From IMG/VR virus record IMGVR_UViG_2740892432_000002, positions 1-6,210 of that record: DNA of 6,210 nucleotides. One strand, written 5' to 3'. Under the pieces are notes generated by a model. It had not been told where the DNA came from. It worked only from the letters and a program-made list of their open reading frames with translations, and ran no database searches. How positions within the stretch are numbered: position 1 is the first letter of the stretch; each line of letters opens with the position of its first letter. Below are positions 1-6,210 of the stretch, one piece after another. Source of the DNA: a virus (Duplodnaviria > Heunggongvirae > Uroviricota > Caudoviricetes). The position numbers and the translations under genes are program-made.

Positions 1-8
1 AGAGACCC

Positions 9-30
9 GGCGGGGGAGAAATCCCCCGCC
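9..30 (+). other. Stable GC-rich hairpin (GGCGGGGGA / GAAA loop / TCCCCCGCC), no U-tract on either strand
   Basis: Perfect 9-bp inverted repeat with a GNRA-type GAAA tetraloop read directly from the sequence. Flanks are not T-rich on either strand, so it is not a canonical intrinsic terminator. Confidence 0.5.
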
Positions 31-69
31 ACCTCTGATGTGTCAGGCATCCTCAACGCACCCGTACTT

Positions 70-93
70 ACCCGCTTCGGCGGGTTTTTTGTT
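70..93 (+). terminator. Rho-independent terminator (ACCCGC / TTCG loop / GCGGGT followed by TTTTTTGTTGT)
   Basis: GC stem with a UUCG-type tetraloop immediately followed by a T6 run. It lies upstream of the first ORF, consistent with the end of an upstream transcription unit (tR-like terminator in a nin-type region). Confidence 0.65.
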
Positions 94-246
94 GTGGTGG
101 AGAAATTAGCTTTTTGTGTACTCTTTTAGCAGTAAGTCTTGAGGGACTGACTGTTGTAAATAGAATCGTGTTTGCTTAGTTAGCGCGCAGGGAGAAGAGG
201 GATGGACCCTTCAGGGGAACGCTATTAATCTGGAAAATTTCTATTT

Positions 247-507
247 ATGGATTTCAAGAAGTTGCGCAAAATTTTTAATAAAGATGGTCTCTATGCTGTG
301 CGCGTTGAAAATGGGGAAATTATTAGTTGTTACTGCATTCATTGCTCACGGGCTTTGCAACAGCCTAGTGGGGCTATGTTAATATATCTCTTGAATGGGC
401 ATGTGACGGACGGATTTATGTTGCGTGAAGATGAATTTGTCACATCATTACGGACATTAAAAGAAATTGGATTAAAAGCTGGCTTTTCTGCTTTTGAAGA
501 CGATTGA
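247..507 (+). CDS. Hypothetical small protein (86 aa), AT-rich codon usage
   Basis: ATG-initiated ORF from the six-frame track. Its stop TGA (505-507) overlaps the TTG at 504 of the next ORF, suggesting operon packing. Only a weak SD-like GGAAAA lies upstream and I recognise no family. Confidence 0.45.
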   Translation: MDFKKLRKIFNKDGLYAVRVENGEIISCYCIHCSRALQQPSGAMLIYLLNGHVTDGFMLREDEFVTSLRTLKEIGLKAGFSAFEDD

Positions 508-584
508 ACTCATCTACAATTCAGCGCAGGGTTGACCCCCTGCTGAGTAACACCGTGCCACCGGAGAAAGCCGATGGCAAGCCG

Positions 585-1184
585 ATGGCACATATACAAC
601 TGATCAAACATACCTCTTCTGGATTACTGCTCCCGGCAACACCGGAGAGTTGCGAATTCTTGCATCAAATAAAAATAGGTGAGTGGATACACGCTGATTT
701 TAAGCGCGTTCGTAACTACGCATTTCACAAGCGTTTTTTCAAACTCCTGCAACTCGGATTCGATTATTGGACTCCTGTCGGTGGGGCGATCACCTCTCGT
801 GAACGAAAACTTGTGTCCGGTTTCGTTGATTATCTGTGTGACTCGGTCGGCCGGGAACATACGCCAGCCCTGAGTGATGCCGCAGAACAATATCTGAATA
901 CCATTGCGATACGCAGAACCTGTGATACGGCATTGCTAAAGTCATTTGATGCTTTCCGTGAATGGGTAACTATTGAGGCCGGATTTTACACCGAGCATTT
1001 TTATCCGGACGGTAGCCGTGGACGCAGGGCAAGATCTATCGCGTTTGCAAATATGGACGATACCGAGTTTCAGCAGGTTTATAAATCCGTACTGAATGTG
1101 CTGTGGAACTGGATCCTGTTCCGTAAATTTTCCTCTCCGGAGGAAGTCGAAAATGTGGCCGCACAGTTACTGGAGTTTGCGTAA
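585..1184 (+). CDS. Lambdoid nin-region protein, DUF1367-like (about 199 aa from ATG 585; the ORF is open from TTG 504)
   Basis: Long + strand ORF directly upstream of a YbcO-like gene and a Q-like gene, a gene order I recall from lambdoid prophages. First in-frame ATG is at 585; the GGAG at 562-565 is rather far from it, so the start is uncertain (alternatives TTG 504, GTG 555). Stop TAA 1182-1184 overlaps the next ATG by 1 nt. Confidence 0.7.
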   Translation: MAHIQLIKHTSSGLLLPATPESCEFLHQIKIGEWIHADFKRVRNYAFHKRFFKLLQLGFDYWTPVGGAITSRERKLVSGFVDYLCDSVGREHTPALSDAAEQYLNTIAIRRTCDTALLKSFDAFREWVTIEAGFYTEHFYPDGSRGRRARSIAFANMDDTEFQQVYKSVLNVLWNWILFRKFSSPEEVENVAAQLLEFA

Positions 1185-1474
1185 TGGTGGATTTACGTAA
1201 AGCGGCGCGGGGGCAGATGTGCACCGTCAGAATTCCTGGCTACTGCAATCACAATCCCGAAACATCTGTGCTGGCGCATTATAGGCTGGCGGGGACGTGC
1301 GGAACAGCGACAAAACCACACGATATGCAGGCAGCGATTGCCTGTAGCTCATGCCACGATTTAATCGACGGGCGGGTAAAAACCAGCGATTACACCAAAG
1401 AAGAATTACGCCTGATGCATGCAGAAGGTGTTTTTCGCACACAAGAAATCTGGAGAAAGGAAGGTTATTTATGA
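1184..1474 (+). CDS. YbcO-like (DUF1364) Cys-rich putative nuclease or zinc-binding protein, 96 aa
   Basis: 96-aa ORF containing several Cys plus a CSSCHD motif; size and position match the YbcO family found just upstream of Q in lambdoid prophages. Start ATG overlaps the upstream stop (TAATG) and its stop overlaps the Q start (ATGA), indicating translational coupling. Confidence 0.75.
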   Translation: MVDLRKAARGQMCTVRIPGYCNHNPETSVLAHYRLAGTCGTATKPHDMQAAIACSSCHDLIDGRVKTSDYTKEELRLMHAEGVFRTQEIWRKEGYL

Positions 1475-2013
1475 TTTACCCAACAAATACAGGCAAAAGC
1501 GGGGAACACCTTCGTCTCACCACGCTGGAAAGTGTCTGGATTCAGGGAAAACTGCGCATGTGGGGGCGCTGGTCGTATATTGGCGGCGGTAAGACGGGAA
1601 ATATGTTTAACCAGTTGCTGGCATCCAAAAAATTGACGAAAACAGCCGTCAATGAAGCCCTGCGCAGGATGAAAAAAGCGGGAATAGAGAAACCTGAGCT
1701 GGAAGCGTTTTTGCGAGAGATGATCAATGGCAAGCAAAAGACCTGGCTGGCGCATTGTACTGATGCAGAGGCGTTATGTATTGATAGAGTCATAAGTGAG
1801 GTGCTGGCAGAGCATCCTGGATTGATTAGTGTCCTCCGGCAACGGTATGAAGGACGGGGGATGACTAAGCGCAAAATGGCTGAATTGCTAAATGATGCAC
1901 ATCCTGAGTGGTGTTTTAGCACATGCGAAAAGCGAATTGCTAATTGGTTGGCTGTTGCTGAGTATGCCCTATATATTCCCATGCGAGAATCATTTGCTCA
2001 AAAAATAGCTTGA
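1471..2013 (+). CDS. Q-like late-gene antitermination protein (180 aa)
   Basis: Last gene before a terminator hairpin and the lysis cassette. Start ATG 1471 has an SD (GGAGAAAGGAAGG) 6 nt upstream and overlaps the upstream stop (ATGA). C-terminal half carries a four-Cys pattern (C-x7-C ... C-x3-C) compatible with the zinc-binding domain of Q proteins. The six-frame track's longer ORF from 1351 overlaps the upstream gene and is treated as a read-through artefact. Confidence 0.7.
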   Translation: MIYPTNTGKSGEHLRLTTLESVWIQGKLRMWGRWSYIGGGKTGNMFNQLLASKKLTKTAVNEALRRMKKAGIEKPELEAFLREMINGKQKTWLAHCTDAEALCIDRVISEVLAEHPGLISVLRQRYEGRGMTKRKMAELLNDAHPEWCFSTCEKRIANWLAVAEYALYIPMRESFAQKIA

Positions 2014-2096
2014 TTTTTTACGCATAAACTGCTTCAATTCCGGTATGCTTCGCAAAGCTGTATCGCGAGGCGAACCAAGCGCATGAACTTTACCAG
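2014..2096 (+). promoter_or_regulatory. Putative late promoter (PR'-like) and Q-utilisation region; exact -35/-10 not resolved
   Basis: Interval between the Q stop and the tR'-like hairpin, where lambdoid phages place PR' and qut. Only weak candidates were found (TTGATT at 2010-2015 with TTCAAT at 2033-2038). Call is by position, not a strong motif. Confidence 0.3.
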
Positions 2097-2125
2097 AACC
2101 CGCCATTGAGCGGGTTTTGTTGTTT
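2097..2125 (+). terminator. tR'-like rho-independent terminator (AACCCGC / CATTGA loop / GCGGGTT followed by TTGTTGTTT)
   Basis: 7-bp GC-rich stem followed by a T-rich tract about 85 nt downstream of the Q stop, the expected position of the terminator that Q-modified RNA polymerase reads through. Confidence 0.65.
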
Positions 2126-2197
2126 CTGGTACTGGCGAACCTGATGTTTCATTTCTGGAGCGCGATTCCTGGCGGAATACCTAGAATCGAGACATTC

Positions 2198-2206
2198 TGG
2201 TAAAAT
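2198..2206 (+). promoter_or_regulatory. Candidate extended -10 promoter (TGg-TAAAAT) for the moron gene
   Basis: TGn immediately upstream of a near-consensus -10 hexamer TAAAAT (2201-2206), about 28 nt before ATG 2235, which has a strong SD (GGAGGTGAG at 2226-2234). No good -35, as is typical of extended -10 promoters. Confidence 0.4.
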
Positions 2207-2234
2207 TGTTTTCAGTACAGGATGTGGAGGTGAG

Positions 2235-2804
2235 ATGAGAGAACTACCTAAAGATTATTTTTTAGGAGTAGATGATGAGCTCGTCGATTATCTTGAAAAA
2301 CAAGGGGAAGAGACGATACGAGAGATTCATCTTTCTAACAAAACCAATGTTGAGAATGGATACAAACTTCTGAACATTCAGATTGTTGGAATTGGTTCAT
2401 CTTTTTTATTGCTGACACAGAAAACTAATTTCGATTTTCTCACCGCCGGAATTACCACATTTACATTACTATGGACATGGTGCGCCATTTACTTGGTATG
2501 TACTGGTTTATCTGTGAAGGTTAGGGGCCTGATCAATGCCCCTCCTGATCATCTATATCATGAAAAATATAAGGATATGGAGCCCTCGAGCTTTAAAATA
2601 TTCGCTGATGCAGGATATTTAGGACCTGATAAGTTATTGCCGCTTATACGAAGGTATCGCCTTGTTGACTTGAGTGATACAGCAAGAGAGTTACTGTTGG
2701 AAAATGAGAAAATCCGCACGAGTCTCGATAAAGCAAGGATGTATACCATCCTTGCTCCGGTAGCGGCGATGTTTATCTCGGCTGTTTTTTTATATGTTCA
2801 ATGA
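2235..2804 (+). CDS. Hypothetical membrane protein, 189 aa, three predicted TM helices; moron between Q/tR' and holin
   Basis: ATG with a strong SD 4 nt upstream. Hydrophobic segments at roughly residues 46-63, 70-92 and 171-189 (C-terminal YTILAPVAAMFISAVFLYV). Acidic N-terminal segment of about 45 aa. Visibly more AT-rich than the flanking phage genes. I recognise no family. Confidence 0.65.
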   Translation: MRELPKDYFLGVDDELVDYLEKQGEETIREIHLSNKTNVENGYKLLNIQIVGIGSSFLLLTQKTNFDFLTAGITTFTLLWTWCAIYLVCTGLSVKVRGLINAPPDHLYHEKYKDMEPSSFKIFADAGYLGPDKLLPLIRRYRLVDLSDTARELLLENEKIRTSLDKARMYTILAPVAAMFISAVFLYVQ

Positions 2805-2934
2805 CTGAGTCGGCAGAATCTCCAACAAAAACACGACGTGTAGCAAAGTCTGTAGTACTTTGTGTTGGAGTTGGTTTTGGTGCCACGGGTTGCTGAGGTT
2901 TATTTTCACCTTGTGGTTTGTTTTTTTCAGACAT
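2773..2934 (-). CDS. Small hypothetical protein, 53 aa (MSEKNKPQGENKPQQPVAPKPTPTQSTTDFATRRVFVGDSADSVIEHIKKQPR), convergent with the moron gene
   Basis: ATG at 2934-2932 (- strand) with SD AGAGGA about 7 nt upstream. A plausible sigma70 -10 (TATATA/TATACT) lies upstream on the - strand near 2990-2998. The six-frame ORF (2773-3165) extends further 5' but the first SD-preceded ATG gives 53 aa. Pro/Gln-rich low-complexity N-terminus; overlaps the 3' end of the 189-aa gene by about 30 nt. Could be spurious. Confidence 0.3.
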   Translation of the reverse strand: MSEKNKPQGENKPQQPVAPKPTPTQSTTDFATRRVFVGDSADSVIEHIKKQPR

Positions 2935-3028
2935 AAAAATCCTCTTTGTTTGAATTGTTACTTTTGGCGATTTAACGATATCAAACACGAGTATATACCG
3001 CCAGAAGCTTAATCTGGCACTCCATCTG

Positions 3029-3056
3029 GCCCCGGCATGTCCCGGGGCTTTTTCGT
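3029..3056 (+). terminator. Rho-independent terminator (GCCCCGG / CATGTC loop / CCGGGGC followed by TTTTTCGTTGTT)
   Basis: Perfect 7-bp GC stem followed by a T5 run on the + strand, about 95 nt upstream of the holin start. It is oriented to stop + strand transcription from the moron promoter before the lysis genes. The - strand flank is not T-rich, so it is unidirectional. Confidence 0.65.
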
Positions 3057-3151
3057 TGTTAGGCTCCGGAAAGATCCTCGACTTCTTGTTAGCAAGCCTG
3101 AGAGCCTGAATCTTACACTTAGCACCATCCGAACTCTCGGAGGTGAGGCTT

Positions 3152-3493
3152 ATGAAAATGCACAATGCCCCTCATTCCTGGCCTGACTTACTGGAACTCT
3201 TACAAAGTTGGTGGCGTGGAGATACGCCGCTGGGTGCAGTGGTTATGTCAATTATTATGGCTGGTTTGCGCATTGCCTATTTTGGCGGTGGCGGCGGCTG
3301 GAAACGAAAAACGCTTGAGATTCTGCTTTGTGGTGCTCTGACGCTGACCTTTGCATCCGCGCTTGAGTATGTCGGATGGCCTAAATCACTTTCTGTTGCC
3401 ATTGGTGGTGGGGTGGGGCTGATTGGTGTTGATGCTATTCGTGGTGCGGCAATGAGGGTCATCGGTAACAAGTTCGGTGCCCATAAGGAGTAA
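3152..3493 (+). CDS. Holin (three predicted TM helices, MKM dual-start motif); not lambda S-like in sequence
   Basis: Sits immediately upstream of the endolysin (stop TAA 3491-3493, R ATG 3497). SD GGAGG at 3139-3143 is 8 nt before ATG 3152, and a second Met follows at codon 3 (M-K-M), as in the lambda S107/S105 holin/antiholin arrangement. An in-frame GTG at 3143 would give MRLMKM. Three hydrophobic helices and a charged C-terminus (RGAAMRVIGNKFGAHKE). Confidence 0.8.
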   Translation: MKMHNAPHSWPDLLELLQSWWRGDTPLGAVVMSIIMAGLRIAYFGGGGGWKRKTLEILLCGALTLTFASALEYVGWPKSLSVAIGGGVGLIGVDAIRGAAMRVIGNKFGAHKE

Positions 3494-3496
3494 TTA

Positions 3497-3973
3497 ATGC
3501 AGACACTTAATTCCCAGCGTAAAGCTTTCCTTGATATGGTGGCATGGTCAGAAGGAACAGATAACGGACGGCAGAAAACCAGAAATCACGGTTATGATGT
3601 TATTGTCGGTGGCGAACTGTTCACTGATTACTCCGATCACCCCCGCAAACTTGTCACGCTAAATCCGAAACTCAAATCAACAGCCGCTGGACGTTACCAG
3701 CTTCTTTCACGCTGGTGGGATGCCTACCGCAAGCAACTTGGCCTGAAAGATTTTTCTCCAGAAAGTCAGGATGCTGTAGCGCTGCAGCAGATTAAAGAGC
3801 GTGGCGCTTTGCCGATGATTGATCGCGGTGATATCCGTCAGGCTATCGACCGTTGCAGCAATATATGGGCTTCACTGCCGGGCGCTGGTTATGGTCAGTT
3901 CGAGCATAAGGCTGACAGTCTGATTGCAAAATTCAAAGAAGCTGGCGGAACGGTCAGAGAGATTGAGGTATGA
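3497..3973 (+). CDS. R: Endolysin, lambda R-type lytic transglycosylase (158 aa)
   Basis: Translation is near-identical over most of its length to lambda R as I recall it ([55 protein letters not shown]...REI.V); only the first ~6 residues differ. Perfect SD AAGGAG 6 nt upstream. Stop overlaps the Rz start (ATGA at 3970-3973). Confidence 0.95.
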
Positions 3974-4434
3974 GCAGAGTAACCGCGATTATCTCCGCTC
4001 TGGTTATCTGCATCGTCGTCTGCCTGTCATGGGGTGTTAATCATTACCGTGATAACGCCATCGCCTACAAAGAACAGCGCGACAAAAATGCCAGAGAACT
4101 GAAGCTGGCGAACGCGGCAATTACTGACATGCAGATGCGTCAGCGTGATGTTGCTGCGCTCGATGCAAAATACACGAAGGAGTTAGCTGATGCGAAAGCT
4201 GAAAATGATGTTCTGCGTGATGATGTTGCCGCTGGTCGTCGTCGGTTGCACATCAAAGCAGTCTGTCAGTCAGTGCGTGAAGCCACCACCGCCTCCGGCG
4301 TGGATAATGCAGCCTCCCCCCGACTGGCAGACACCGCTGAACGGGATTATTTCACCCTCCGGGAACGACTGGTAATGATGCAGGCCCAACTTGAAGGTGC
4401 TCAGCAATACATAACCGAGCAGTGTTTAAAGTAA
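3970..4434 (+). CDS. Rz: Rz i-spanin (inner-membrane spanin subunit), 154 aa
   Basis: N-terminal TM helix ([16 protein letters not shown]) followed by a charged, coiled-coil-like periplasmic domain. Near-identical to lambda Rz from memory. Position after R and the embedded Rz1 confirm the call. Confidence 0.95.
4190..4375 (+). CDS. Rz1: Rz1 o-spanin lipoprotein (61 aa), fully embedded in the +1 frame of Rz
   Basis: Signal peptide with lipobox (LVVVGC), then a Pro-rich mature region ([18 protein letters not shown]). Matches lambda Rz1 and the Rac RzoR as I recall them. Classic embedded-gene architecture. Confidence 0.9.
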
Positions 4435-4514
4435 AATCTTAACTACAATATGATTCATTTTGATGATTGTTTCATAAGGAACAGTGAAGTAAGATCTAAG
4501 AGGAGTTAAATTTT

Positions 4515-4554
4515 ATACAGTATAATCATAATATTGCAGCAAGGTGGTTATAAT
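4515..4554 (+). promoter_or_regulatory. AT-rich putative promoter region for trkG (two consensus TATAAT hexamers at 4521-4526 and 4549-4554)
   Basis: Two perfect -10 hexamers in the very AT-rich intergenic region between Rz and trkG. No convincing -35 was found. Call is by motif only. Confidence 0.3.
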
Positions 4555-4571
4555 TGAAAGAATATTTAGAT

Positions 4572-6029
4572 ATGAATACATCTCATGTAAGAGTTGTTAC
4601 TCATATGTGTGGGTTCCTGGTTTGGCTCTATAGTCTTTCAATGTTGCCACCAATGGTTGTAGCATTGTTTTATAAAGAAAAAAGCCTGTTCGTTTTCTTA
4701 ATAACTTTCGTTATATTTTTTTGCATTGGTGGCGGAGCGTGGTATACAACTAAGAAATCTGGCATTCAATTACGTACCCGTGATGGGTTTATTATAATTG
4801 TAATGTTTTGGATTTTGTTTTCTGTTATTAGTGCATTCCCTTTATGGATTGACTCAGAACTTAATTTAACGTTCATTGATGCTCTGTTTGAAGGGGTTTC
4901 TGGAATAACAACAACAGGAGCAACTGTAATTGATGATGTTAGTTCATTACCTCGGGCATATTTGTACTATCGGTCACAGTTAAATTTTATAGGTGGTTTA
5001 GGAGTTATTGTTCTGGCGGTTGCTGTATTGCCATTATTGGGTATTGGTGGTGCAAAGCTTTATCAGTCAGAAATGCCGGGGCCATTTAAGGATGACAAAC
5101 TCACTCCCCGCCTGGCCGATACGTCACGGACACTGTGGATAACTTATTCTTTATTAGGTATTGCTTGTATTGTCTGTTATAGACTTGCAGGAATGCCTTT
5201 GTTTGATGCTATTTGTCACGGGATTTCCACAGTTTCGCTTGGTGGTTTCTCAACTCATAGCGAGAGTATCGGATATTTTAATAACTATTTGGTTGAGCTG
5301 GTGGCTGGTTCTTTTTCCCTGCTATCGGCTTTCAACTTCACTCTTTGGTATATTGTTATTAGCAGGAAAACGATAAAACCTTTAATCAGAGATATTGAAC
5401 TTCGTTTCTTTCTGTTAATAGCCTTAGGGGTGATCATTGTTACCTCTTTCCAGGTCTGGCATATAGGTATGTATGACTTGCATGGAAGTTTTATTCATTC
5501 GTTTTTTCTTGCCAGCTCCATGCTCACTGATAATGGTTTAGCTACGCAGGATTATGCAAGTTGGCCCACGCACACGATAGTGTTTTTGCTGTTGTCAAGT
5601 TTCTTTGGGGGATGTATAGGTTCAACTTGTGGTGGAATTAAGTCACTTCGATTTCTTATACTTTTCAAACAAAGCAAACACGAGATAAATCAGCTTTCTC
5701 ATCCCAGAGCGTTGTTGAGTGTAAATGTAGGAGGGAAGATAGTTACAGATCGTGTAATGAGGTCTGTATGGAGTTTCTTTTTTCTTTATACTCTCTTCAC
5801 GGTGTTTTTTATACTGGTGTTAAATGGTATGGGATATGATTTTCTTACATCATTTGCAACAGTGGCTGCATGTATTAATAATATGGGATTAGGTTTTGGG
5901 GCTACTGCATCGTCATTCGGAGTGCTTAATGACATTGCAAAATGTTTAATGTGCATAGCTATGATTCTTGGTCGCCTTGAAATTTATCCTGTTATTATAT
6001 TGTTTTCAGGTTTTTTTTGGCGCTCCTAA
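4572..6029 (+). CDS. trkG: TrkG/TrkH-family potassium uptake membrane protein (485 aa from ATG 4572)
   Basis: Long polytopic membrane protein with repeated Gly-rich selectivity-filter-like motifs (GITTTGATV, GGFSTH, GLATQDY, NNMGLGFG). N-terminus MNTSHVRVVTHM matches Rac-prophage TrkG as I recall it. Markedly AT-rich compared with the adjacent lysis genes. An in-frame TTG at 4554 has a better-placed SD (AAGGTGG at 4541-4547), so the true start may be 6 codons upstream. Confidence 0.93.
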   Translation: MNTSHVRVVTHMCGFLVWLYSLSMLPPMVVALFYKEKSLFVFLITFVIFFCIGGGAWYTTKKSGIQLRTRDGFIIIVMFWILFSVISAFPLWIDSELNLTFIDALFEGVSGITTTGATVIDDVSSLPRAYLYYRSQLNFIGGLGVIVLAVAVLPLLGIGGAKLYQSEMPGPFKDDKLTPRLADTSRTLWITYSLLGIACIVCYRLAGMPLFDAICHGISTVSLGGFSTHSESIGYFNNYLVELVAGSFSLLSAFNFTLWYIVISRKTIKPLIRDIELRFFLLIALGVIIVTSFQVWHIGMYDLHGSFIHSFFLASSMLTDNGLATQDYASWPTHTIVFLLLSSFFGGCIGSTCGGIKSLRFLILFKQSKHEINQLSHPRALLSVNVGGKIVTDRVMRSVWSFFFLYTLFTVFFILVLNGMGYDFLTSFATVAACINNMGLGFGATASSFGVLNDIAKCLMCIAMILGRLEIYPVIILFSGFFWRS

Positions 6030-6063
6030 TATATGGCTGATTTATAATTGTGAGTTTAATATT

Positions 6064-6204
6064 ATGTTGACTCACTCATTGATCCAATACCTAACTTTAC
6101 CAGCAACACCTCCGTCCCCAGTAGCACTGGCTGCTGGGGTGCGTTTTATTCATAAAGCAAGGCTGTATGAGCGAGAAATTAAAGATGATCTTACCCAGCA
6201 ATAG
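6064..6204 (+). CDS. Small hypothetical ORF (46 aa) downstream of trkG; uncertain
   Basis: ATG 6064 in frame with track ORF 5968-6204; the upstream part overlaps trkG and is rejected. Only a weak SD. Alternatively, an ATG at 6185 (MILPSNSG...) in another frame may start a gene that runs off the window end (possibly the Rac ynaK homologue; not verifiable here). Confidence 0.2.
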   Translation: MLTHSLIQYLTLPATPPSPVALAAGVRFIHKARLYEREIKDDLTQQ

Positions 6205-6210
6205 TGGACA

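Follow-up and report, generated by a model that had tools for sequence, protein, structure and literature searches.

The locus studied here raises the question of whether a stretch of phage DNA preserves a part of the Rac prophage that laboratory Escherichia coli K-12 has lost, and of what such a relationship would say about the genes that K-12 lacks. The stretch, called the window throughout, comprises 6,210 nucleotides (nt) of a virus of the Caudoviricetes (IMG/VR record IMGVR_UViG_2740892432_000002, positions 1 to 6,210), and among its genes is one for a 189-amino-acid (aa) membrane protein that belongs to a family of unknown function. An earlier note on the window had claimed that K-12 keeps ydaW, an rzpR pseudogene, rzoR and trkG at this place, that Rz1 and TrkG of the window match those remnants, and that the window is an undeleted Rac relative which still carries a YbcO-like gene, the antiterminator gene Q, a moron (cargo) cassette, a holin gene and an endolysin gene. 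These claims are borne out: the K-12 record is annotated in this way, the window's Rz1 and TrkG share 98.4% and 99.8% aa identity with K-12 RzoR and TrkG, respectively, and the genes in question are full-length and lie between Rac flanks in close relatives. With identities of this order, coincidence need not be considered. Taken as a whole, we consider it very probable that the window is a Rac-type segment covering the nin end, late regulation and lysis, that K-12 Rac is the form of this element produced by one deletion, and that the 189-aa gene and its convergent partner are a moron placed in the slot between Q and the holin gene.

Orthology of the window to the Rac prophage

Genes were called in the window from a six-frame listing of open reading frames (ORFs) together with profile searches (Pfam, NCBIfam, PHROGs and PADLOC), and the window was compared with 5426 complete genomes, all of E. 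coli. The closest of these genomes, RM9513, matches at 99.7% over window positions 1–6186 and carries the segment in a prophage located between ttcA and uspF/ompN. On its 5′ side this prophage has intR, xisR, ralR, recT, recE, kilR, sieB, ydaT and ydaV, and on its 3′ side trkG, ydaY, tfaR, pinR and ynaM; the site and both arms are those of Rac as annotated in MG1655, and the prophage is collinear with K-12 Rac on either side of the gap described below. Strain M1 and GenBank entry ON470590, a prophage predicted by PHASTER from a carbapenemase-producing isolate (bioRxiv 10.1101/2022.06.29.498070), share the Rac backbone with RM9513, and ON470590 aligns with window 585–6186 at 97.4% and codes for a 189-aa protein identical to that of the window. 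By the proxy of RM9513 and M1, the element is integrated at ttcA with intR and xisR at its left end, and in both strains collinearity with K-12 runs from ttcA to ydaW and again from Rz onward, trkG included.

The window could instead derive from a non-Rac lambdoid prophage that gained the Rz–trkG part by recombination, in which case it would not be orthologous to Rac. The late regions of lambdoid prophages are highly mosaic, the similarity between relatives changes exactly at 585, at about 2072–2128 and at 3970, and the attachment site lies outside the window, all of which such an origin would accommodate. RM9513, M1 and ON470590, however, each place the segment together with the Rac integrase, recET, kilR and sieB, and trkG and the start of the following ynaK-like gene are collinear with K-12 up to position 6186. 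We regard a non-Rac origin as highly improbable.

The deletion in K-12 Rac

Compared with the window as a segment of Rac, the Rac prophage of K-12 (MG1655) aligns only at 3990–6186, at 99.77% identity, and the right end of the deletion lies between window positions 3989 and 3990, inside Rz. From ttcA, K-12 aligns with RM9513 and M1 into ydaW and then jumps, at record position 1423200/1423201, to nt 21 of Rz. Alignment of the window to the MG1655 region from ydaW to trkG, which the earlier note had proposed as a check, thus mapped both endpoints: read base by base, the junction passes from about codon 150 of ydaW (DUF1627) to codon 7–8 of Rz, in a different frame and with a shared TA. Counted on RM9513 the missing interval measures 11,140 bp, and on M1 9,190 bp, a difference in size that arises because the two strains hold different cargo between the DUF977 and DUF1367 genes. 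In RM9513 this cargo (L002 13799–19349) consists of a dGTPase, a metallo-beta-lactamase (MBL)-fold hydrolase and a DUF4145 protein, and in M1 (L024 17156–20549) of IteA/IteS; the DUF977–DUF1367 interval, which also falls within the part deleted in K-12, looks like a defence hotspot with anti-phage cargo. Two further gaps distinguish K-12 from RM9513, one from ynaK to ydaY and one within the tail region.

In the explanation that we favour, K-12 Rac is the element of the window after one illegitimate deletion at a microhomology of 2 nt (TA). K-12 retains the same element, 99.8% identical between Rz codon 8 and the start of the ynaK-like gene, trkG included, but 9–11 kb are gone, and with them everything in window 1–3989. 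The traces are visible in the K-12 genes that border the junction. The 186-aa YdaW of K-12 (YP_009518776.1; L001 12753–13313) is chimeric, its last 37 codons being Rz DNA read out of frame; rzpR lacks only the first 20 nt and the start codon of Rz; and rzoR and trkG are whole, with rzoR left partnerless.

We also searched the Rac, DLP12 and Qin regions of the K-12 chromosome with the window and its proteins. Neither blastn nor tblastn found a DUF1367 gene, a DUF1133-type Q, the 189-aa gene, a lambda-family holin or a lambda-R endolysin in these three regions, and what they contain are paralogues only, namely YbcO of DLP12 (62% aa identity with the YbcO-like product), Rem of Qin (59% aa identity with the Rem-like product), Rz (91%) and Rz1. 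Two findings would have spoken against the view of the window as an undeleted Rac relative, a lack of orthology to Rac and the presence of the same genes intact in K-12; the RM9513 flanks speak against the first, and the presence of paralogues only in the three K-12 regions searched speaks against the second.

Distribution and mosaicism among E. coli genomes

The survey of intact and deleted versions, likewise suggested in the earlier note, separates the two forms. The K-12 junction was detected in 338 of the 5426 genomes with a 401-nt probe and in 335 with a 60-nt probe. All 15 of the junction carriers that we sampled are K-12 derivatives or laboratory strains, including MG1655, EMG2, NCM3722, XL1-Blue, MC1061, ER1709 and an O16:H48 mouse-gut isolate, which suggests a deletion peculiar to the K-12 lineage. 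An intact arrangement of lambda-R-type endolysin, Rz and trkG is present in at least 258 genomes and the window's Q-to-holin interval in 222; 202 genomes cover 80% or more of the entire window; the segment immediately 3′ of trkG occurs in 1518.

Within the Rac backbone the late region is itself exchangeable. In other Rac prophages the same Rz is preceded by an rrrD-type endolysin gene, the joint falling exactly on the Rz start codon (window position 3970), and strain M1 has the same DUF1367–YbcO–Q and Rz–trkG genes with TolA-like genes and essD/rrrD in the slot between them. Many genomes, M1 among them, begin to match the window exactly at 585. The three mosaic boundaries given above correspond to the ATG of the DUF1367 gene (585), a place just past the terminator that follows Q (about 2072–2128) and the ATG of Rz (3970), which fits an exchange of modules at gene borders.

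This mosaicism bears on a further claim, that the 189-aa gene is uncharacterised because it belongs to a segment missing from the best-studied strain. The first half of the claim stands, as the gene does lie in a segment absent from K-12; that an ancestor of K-12 ever had the gene does not follow. Rac prophages differ both in the Q-to-holin slot and in their holin/endolysin pair, and the ancestor of K-12 may have been without the 189-aa gene; because the slot varies and K-12 keeps nothing there, its former presence in that lineage cannot be asserted. We in fact lean somewhat towards an ancestor that had the Rac backbone with other cargo in the slot, possibly essD/rrrD, and a lineage in which the 189-aa gene never occurred, and under this alternative the K-12 deletion does not explain the obscurity of the gene. 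Across ydaV–ydaW, M1 is closer to K-12 (96.4%) than RM9513 is (79.6–90.3%), a 203-nt stretch on the left side of the junction agrees with K-12 at 100% of positions, and the slot of M1 is the one filled by TolA-like genes and essD/rrrD. The many Rac prophages with rrrD-type endolysins joined to the same Rz at 3970 point the same way, as does the count of genomes with the cassette, 222 compared to about 1518 with the trkG region. Conversely, K-12 keeps nothing from ydaW to Rz codon 8 and is compatible with both variants, and its Rz–trkG part is about equally close to the two (99.7–99.8%).

Gene content of the window

Read as a Rac-type segment that K-12 has lost in one variant or another, the window contains a compact series of genes on one strand (Table 1), and profile searches showed that all assigned genes in 504–4434 span their family profile end to end. 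The DUF1367 frame is open from TTG 504; we place the start probably at ATG 585, because the Pfam match (residues 28–225, counted from TTG 504, aligned to profile positions 1–198 of 198), the RefSeq annotation of RM9513, in which ATG 585 is the start, and the mosaic boundary all point there. The product of the Q gene also scores 28 bits on Phage_antitermQ (cut-off 26) and matches phrog_753, a Q-like family.

Table 1 Features of the window, with the evidence for each assignment
Feature	Position	Strand	Evidence and remarks
Rem-like ORF, 86 aa	247–507	+	phrog_340, E 3e-20; upstream of the 504–4434 region
DUF1367 / NinB-Orf-like gene	585–1184	+	Pfam DUF1367, E 1.6e-96; phrog_319 NinB/Orf
YbcO-like (DUF1364) putative nuclease gene	1184–1474	+	Pfam YbcO, E 1.4e-45, profile 2–91/92
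Late antiterminator Q, DUF1133 type	1471–2013	+	Pfam DUF1133, E 2.8e-109, 363 bits, profile 1–175/176
Candidate late promoter pR′	1948–1977	+	TTGGCT, 18-nt spacer, TATATT; 9/12 consensus matches
Intrinsic terminator, candidate tR′	2094–2128	+	10-bp stem followed by T run
189-aa membrane protein gene	2235–2804	+	phrog_11870, full length (family of unknown function); first gene of slot cassette
Convergent 53-aa gene	2773–2934	−	phrog_14506; overlaps 3′ end of 189-aa gene by 32 nt
Terminator-like hairpin between cassette and holin gene	3028–3058	+	8-bp stem with 7 G-C pairs, then TTTTTCGTTGT
Lambda-family class I holin gene	3152–3493	+	TIGR01594, 139 bits (cut-off 55), profile 1–107/107; Pfam Phage_holin_3_1
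Lambda R-type endolysin gene, 158 aa	3497–3973	+	phrog_90 endolysin
Rz i-spanin gene, intact	3970–4434	+	Pfam Phage_lysis, E 3.7e-53
Rz1 o-spanin lipoprotein gene	4190–4375	+	Pfam Rz1, E 2e-19; inside Rz in another frame
trkG potassium transporter gene, Rac marker	4572–6029	+	TIGR00933, 415 bits
IS3 element end	6186–6210	+	25/25 nt identical to start of K-12 IS3C

Some further observations concern the left part of the window. Positions 1–582, which hold the end of hokD and the Rem-like ORF, share 75% nt identity with the hokD–rem region of K-12 Qin (L004 14577–15120), hokD–rem being a small module common to Rac-type and Qin-type prophages. The Rfam scan of the window returned only one match, below threshold and outside the 504–4434 region: a full-length (1–77 of 77) resemblance at 10–90 on the plus strand to isrK, an Hfq-binding small RNA of Salmonella Gifsy-1, at 33 bits compared to a gathering score of 50 (E 2e-4), which in RM9513 lies just 3′ of the end of hokD. 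Separately, the DUF1367, YbcO and Q proteins encoded at 2504–3944 of PP818812.1 (‘Actinobacillus phage vB_Apl-pPE4’) are 93%, 100% and 88% identical to those of the window. This is unexpected for a phage of Pasteurellaceae, and the similarity suggests an enterobacterial origin or a misattributed host.

Candidate late control signals, and lysis genes

The region that follows Q contains candidate signals for late transcription. The designation of 1948–1977 as pR′ would follow from its location where Q ends. The terminator at 2094–2128 has a predicted folding energy of -18.4 kcal/mol (z-score -3.4), and window 2014–2128 travels with DUF1133-type Q genes in more than 1000 genomes, similarity ending just past the terminator. 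Of the parts expected of a Q module (a promoter with a Q-utilisation site, and a downstream terminator), the terminator is present and the candidate promoter is a match at only 9 of 12 consensus positions. The second hairpin, at 3028–3058, has a predicted energy of -16.4 kcal/mol (z-score -2.7). By analogy with lambda, after induction a Q-modified polymerase that starts near the end of Q would pass the first terminator, the cassette and the second hairpin, and would thus read through into the genes for S, R and Rz/Rz1.

Among these lysis genes, the holin gene opens with Met-Lys-Met (ATG AAA ATG at 3152) and is preceded by GGAGGTGAGG, with a strong ribosome-binding site. Lambda S likewise has a dual start (S107/S105). 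Window 3515–4359 shares 93.6% nt identity with lambda R–Rz (J02459 45511–46355). The lysis cassette therefore comprises a dual-start class I holin, an R endolysin and Rz with embedded Rz1, the Pfam scores of Rz and Rz1 both exceeding their cut-offs; on the lambda paradigm, the dual start of the holin would set the timing of lysis and the spanins would finish the disruption of the envelope.

In order and logic the window is the same as the late region of lambda (Q, pR′/tR′, S, R, Rz/Rz1, bor), and the likeness extends to the holin family, the Met-Lys-Met start, the embedding of Rz1 in Rz, and the presence of a cargo gene after Rz, which is trkG in the window and bor in lambda. There are two differences: the Q of the window is of the DUF1133 type rather than lambda Q, and a two-gene cassette stands between Q and the holin gene, where lambda has none. 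The guanine-plus-cytosine (GC) content of the trkG region (window 4435–6029) is 0.33–0.43, compared to about 0.50 in the lysis genes, and this low value fits trkG as foreign cargo placed after Rz, at the position of lambda bor.

The 189-amino-acid protein and its convergent partner

The 189-aa protein had no match in Pfam, NCBIfam or PADLOC (in PADLOC none reached E ≤ 1), and comparison of its profile with solved structures returned noise only (best E 0.097). Its gene has a strong GGAGG ribosome-binding site upstream; a candidate extended -10 element (TGgTAAAAT) at 2198–2206 is a consensus match only, and on the other side the terminator-like hairpin of Table 1 follows the cassette. From just after the terminator behind Q to about 3050 the GC content is 0.38–0.41, compared to 0.47–0.53 in the flanks. 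An AlphaFold2 model of the protein (predicted local distance difference test, pLDDT, 84) has three long helices at residues 14–62, 68–92 and 134–188, and by inspection there are hydrophobic stretches at about 44–62, 69–94 and 169–188; by the positive-inside rule, the N-terminus would be in and the C-terminus out, with both soluble parts in the cytoplasm. A profile search of 1.84 billion representative proteins recovered about 100 clusters at 50% identity, whose members are nearly always 160–200 aa long, and among these clusters no fusions to annotated domains were found. A further profile search, run with an alignment of distant members, contributed hardly any more among the candidates considered. 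In 40 close members, G52-I53-G54-S55-S56-F57, P104, L107-Y108 and R139-R140/R142 are invariant or nearly so.

The partner is a small ORF in convergent orientation. At all 13 scanned loci with a full-length homologue of the larger gene, a convergent ORF of 45–53 aa overlaps its 3′ end, in most cases with a Shine-Dalgarno-like sequence upstream. The product is rich in Pro, Lys and Gln and carries an R-x-x-VGDSA motif at 10 loci of enterobacterial type, but not at the locus of the distant family member P0129. Gene callers overlooked this ORF in several genomes; a similar convergent ORF of 45 aa is annotated at a locus of Pasteurellaceae.

The pair is found in varied surroundings. Prophages of Morganella, Pantoea and Serratia have the same two genes flanked by Q genes of three different families and by different holins, and distant relatives of the larger gene occur beside a repressor–Bro region, among early genes, within a cluster of siphovirus tail genes and within a baseplate cluster of Mu-like type, the convergent small ORF being seen in the repressor–Bro and early-gene contexts as well. 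The slot is differently filled in relatives, as in strain M1, the pair takes varied positions in unrelated prophages, and its base composition is unlike that of the flanks; in all this the pair behaves as an autonomous moron, housed here in the slot between Q and the holin gene.

The varied positions of the pair also argue against a dedicated role in lysis. An accessory lysis function, as an antiholin or a timing factor, might be suspected for a small protein with three membrane helices whose gene, in Enterobacterales, lies after Q and directly before the holin gene, where transcription of the late operon would include it. Yet the families of Q, holin and endolysin change between hosts and the cassette does not, and distant members lie in early regions, in the tail-gene cluster and in the Mu-like baseplate cluster. 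Moreover, the 189-aa gene is missing from some Rac prophages that share this Q and Rz, the GC content of the cassette is below that of the lysis genes, and a terminator-like hairpin stands between the two. We consider a lysis accessory unlikely. Judged from its context, the cassette most likely has its role at the inner membrane of the lysogen; it would serve exclusion or abortive infection, or would pair a toxin with a small antidote.

Resemblance to Pycsar and CBASS effectors

A lead towards known effectors comes from P0129, which matches the profile of the 189-aa family over its full length (E 8e-22) and also matches the PADLOC model of PycTM, an effector of the pyrimidine-cyclase-based antiphage resistance system (Pycsar), over its full length (E 1.5e-8), and a 2TM effector model of the cyclic-oligonucleotide-based antiphage signalling system (CBASS; 4e-5). 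Two other family members match marginally (P0127 at 0.01 to PycTM). The window protein and ten other relatives, including the nearest of P0129, had no match to PycTM models, and a search seeded with P0129 gave only nine proteins, none of them a cyclase-linked PycTM. The window has no cyclase (PycC) gene either, and none is listed among the genes annotated at ten distinct homologous loci.

PycTM and CBASS 2TM effectors are of similar size (160–190 aa) and have a helical membrane architecture, but the partner of the 189-aa family is a small convergent ORF, whereas a Pycsar system would have an adjacent pyrimidine cyclase, PycC. We do not assign the 189-aa protein to PycTM, as it has neither the profile match nor the adjacent cyclase and the lead comes from P0129; the resemblance is a weak and unproven lead rather than family membership. 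It is conceivable, though we think it doubtful, that the pair is a cyclase-independent two-gene module, mobile between prophages, in which a three-helix effector distantly related to the pore-formers of Pycsar and CBASS would be joined by a small disordered protein with the VGDSA motif.

Discussion

Several observations weigh against the interpretation of the window as an undeleted Rac segment with a moron. The window contains no attachment site, and its integration site would be that of its relatives. Its own Rac element is disrupted by IS3, which sits about 20 nt inside the ynaK/ParB-like gene behind trkG; all genome matches stop at 6186, and the IS3 junction was found in none of the 5426 E. 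coli genomes. The prophage of RM9513 is itself defective: an internal stop interrupts its large terminase gene, its tail region is shortened, and its tape-measure gene runs straight into tfaR (L002 29138–30439 and 38793–41518), and because of these terminase and tail defects the word ‘intact’ applies to the late-regulation and lysis segment and not to the whole prophage. In addition, promoter-like sites in the region are no more frequent than in shuffled sequence, and the function proposed for the cassette is deduced from its surroundings.

The finding holds but is not new. The status of K-12 Rac as a deleted remnant, with its ydaW and rzpR remnants, is already part of the reference annotation, full-sized Rac-like prophages are common, published and routinely annotated, and identical copies of the window's late region are in GenBank. 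The size and gene content of Rac differ among strains (PMC5700373), and Sp10 and CP-933R of O157:H7 are Rac-like prophages at ttcA that retain replication functions (PMC4632033). Full-sized Rac-like prophages with LT-II toxin genes are mentioned in PMC5917428, which cites Jobling 2016, and in type II enterotoxigenic E. coli (ETEC) the LT-II toxin genes lie just 3′ of the endolysin gene (PMC3252337). Like the relatives of the window, full-sized Rac-like prophages are integrated at ttcA, possess the recombination and immunity arm of Rac and have their late region complete, and their cargo varies, with LT-II genes in type II ETEC and TolA-like genes in M1.

The base-level description of the K-12 junction is a small gain in annotation: the deletion map explains the chimeric ydaW, the start-less rzpR and the orphan rzoR of K-12, and hundreds of natural isolates keep the region that K-12 lost. 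The result is thus useful annotation rather than new biology, and the two-gene membrane cassette is the sole open lead. As K-12 is without the cassette, it offers a clean host in which protection from phages or toxicity of the cassette could be tested. If the doubtful idea of a cyclase-independent module were true, the pair could represent a new system of abortive infection or exclusion carried by prophages, or else a toxin–antitoxin pair, that moves between unrelated prophages in Enterobacterales, Pasteurellaceae and Burkholderiales.

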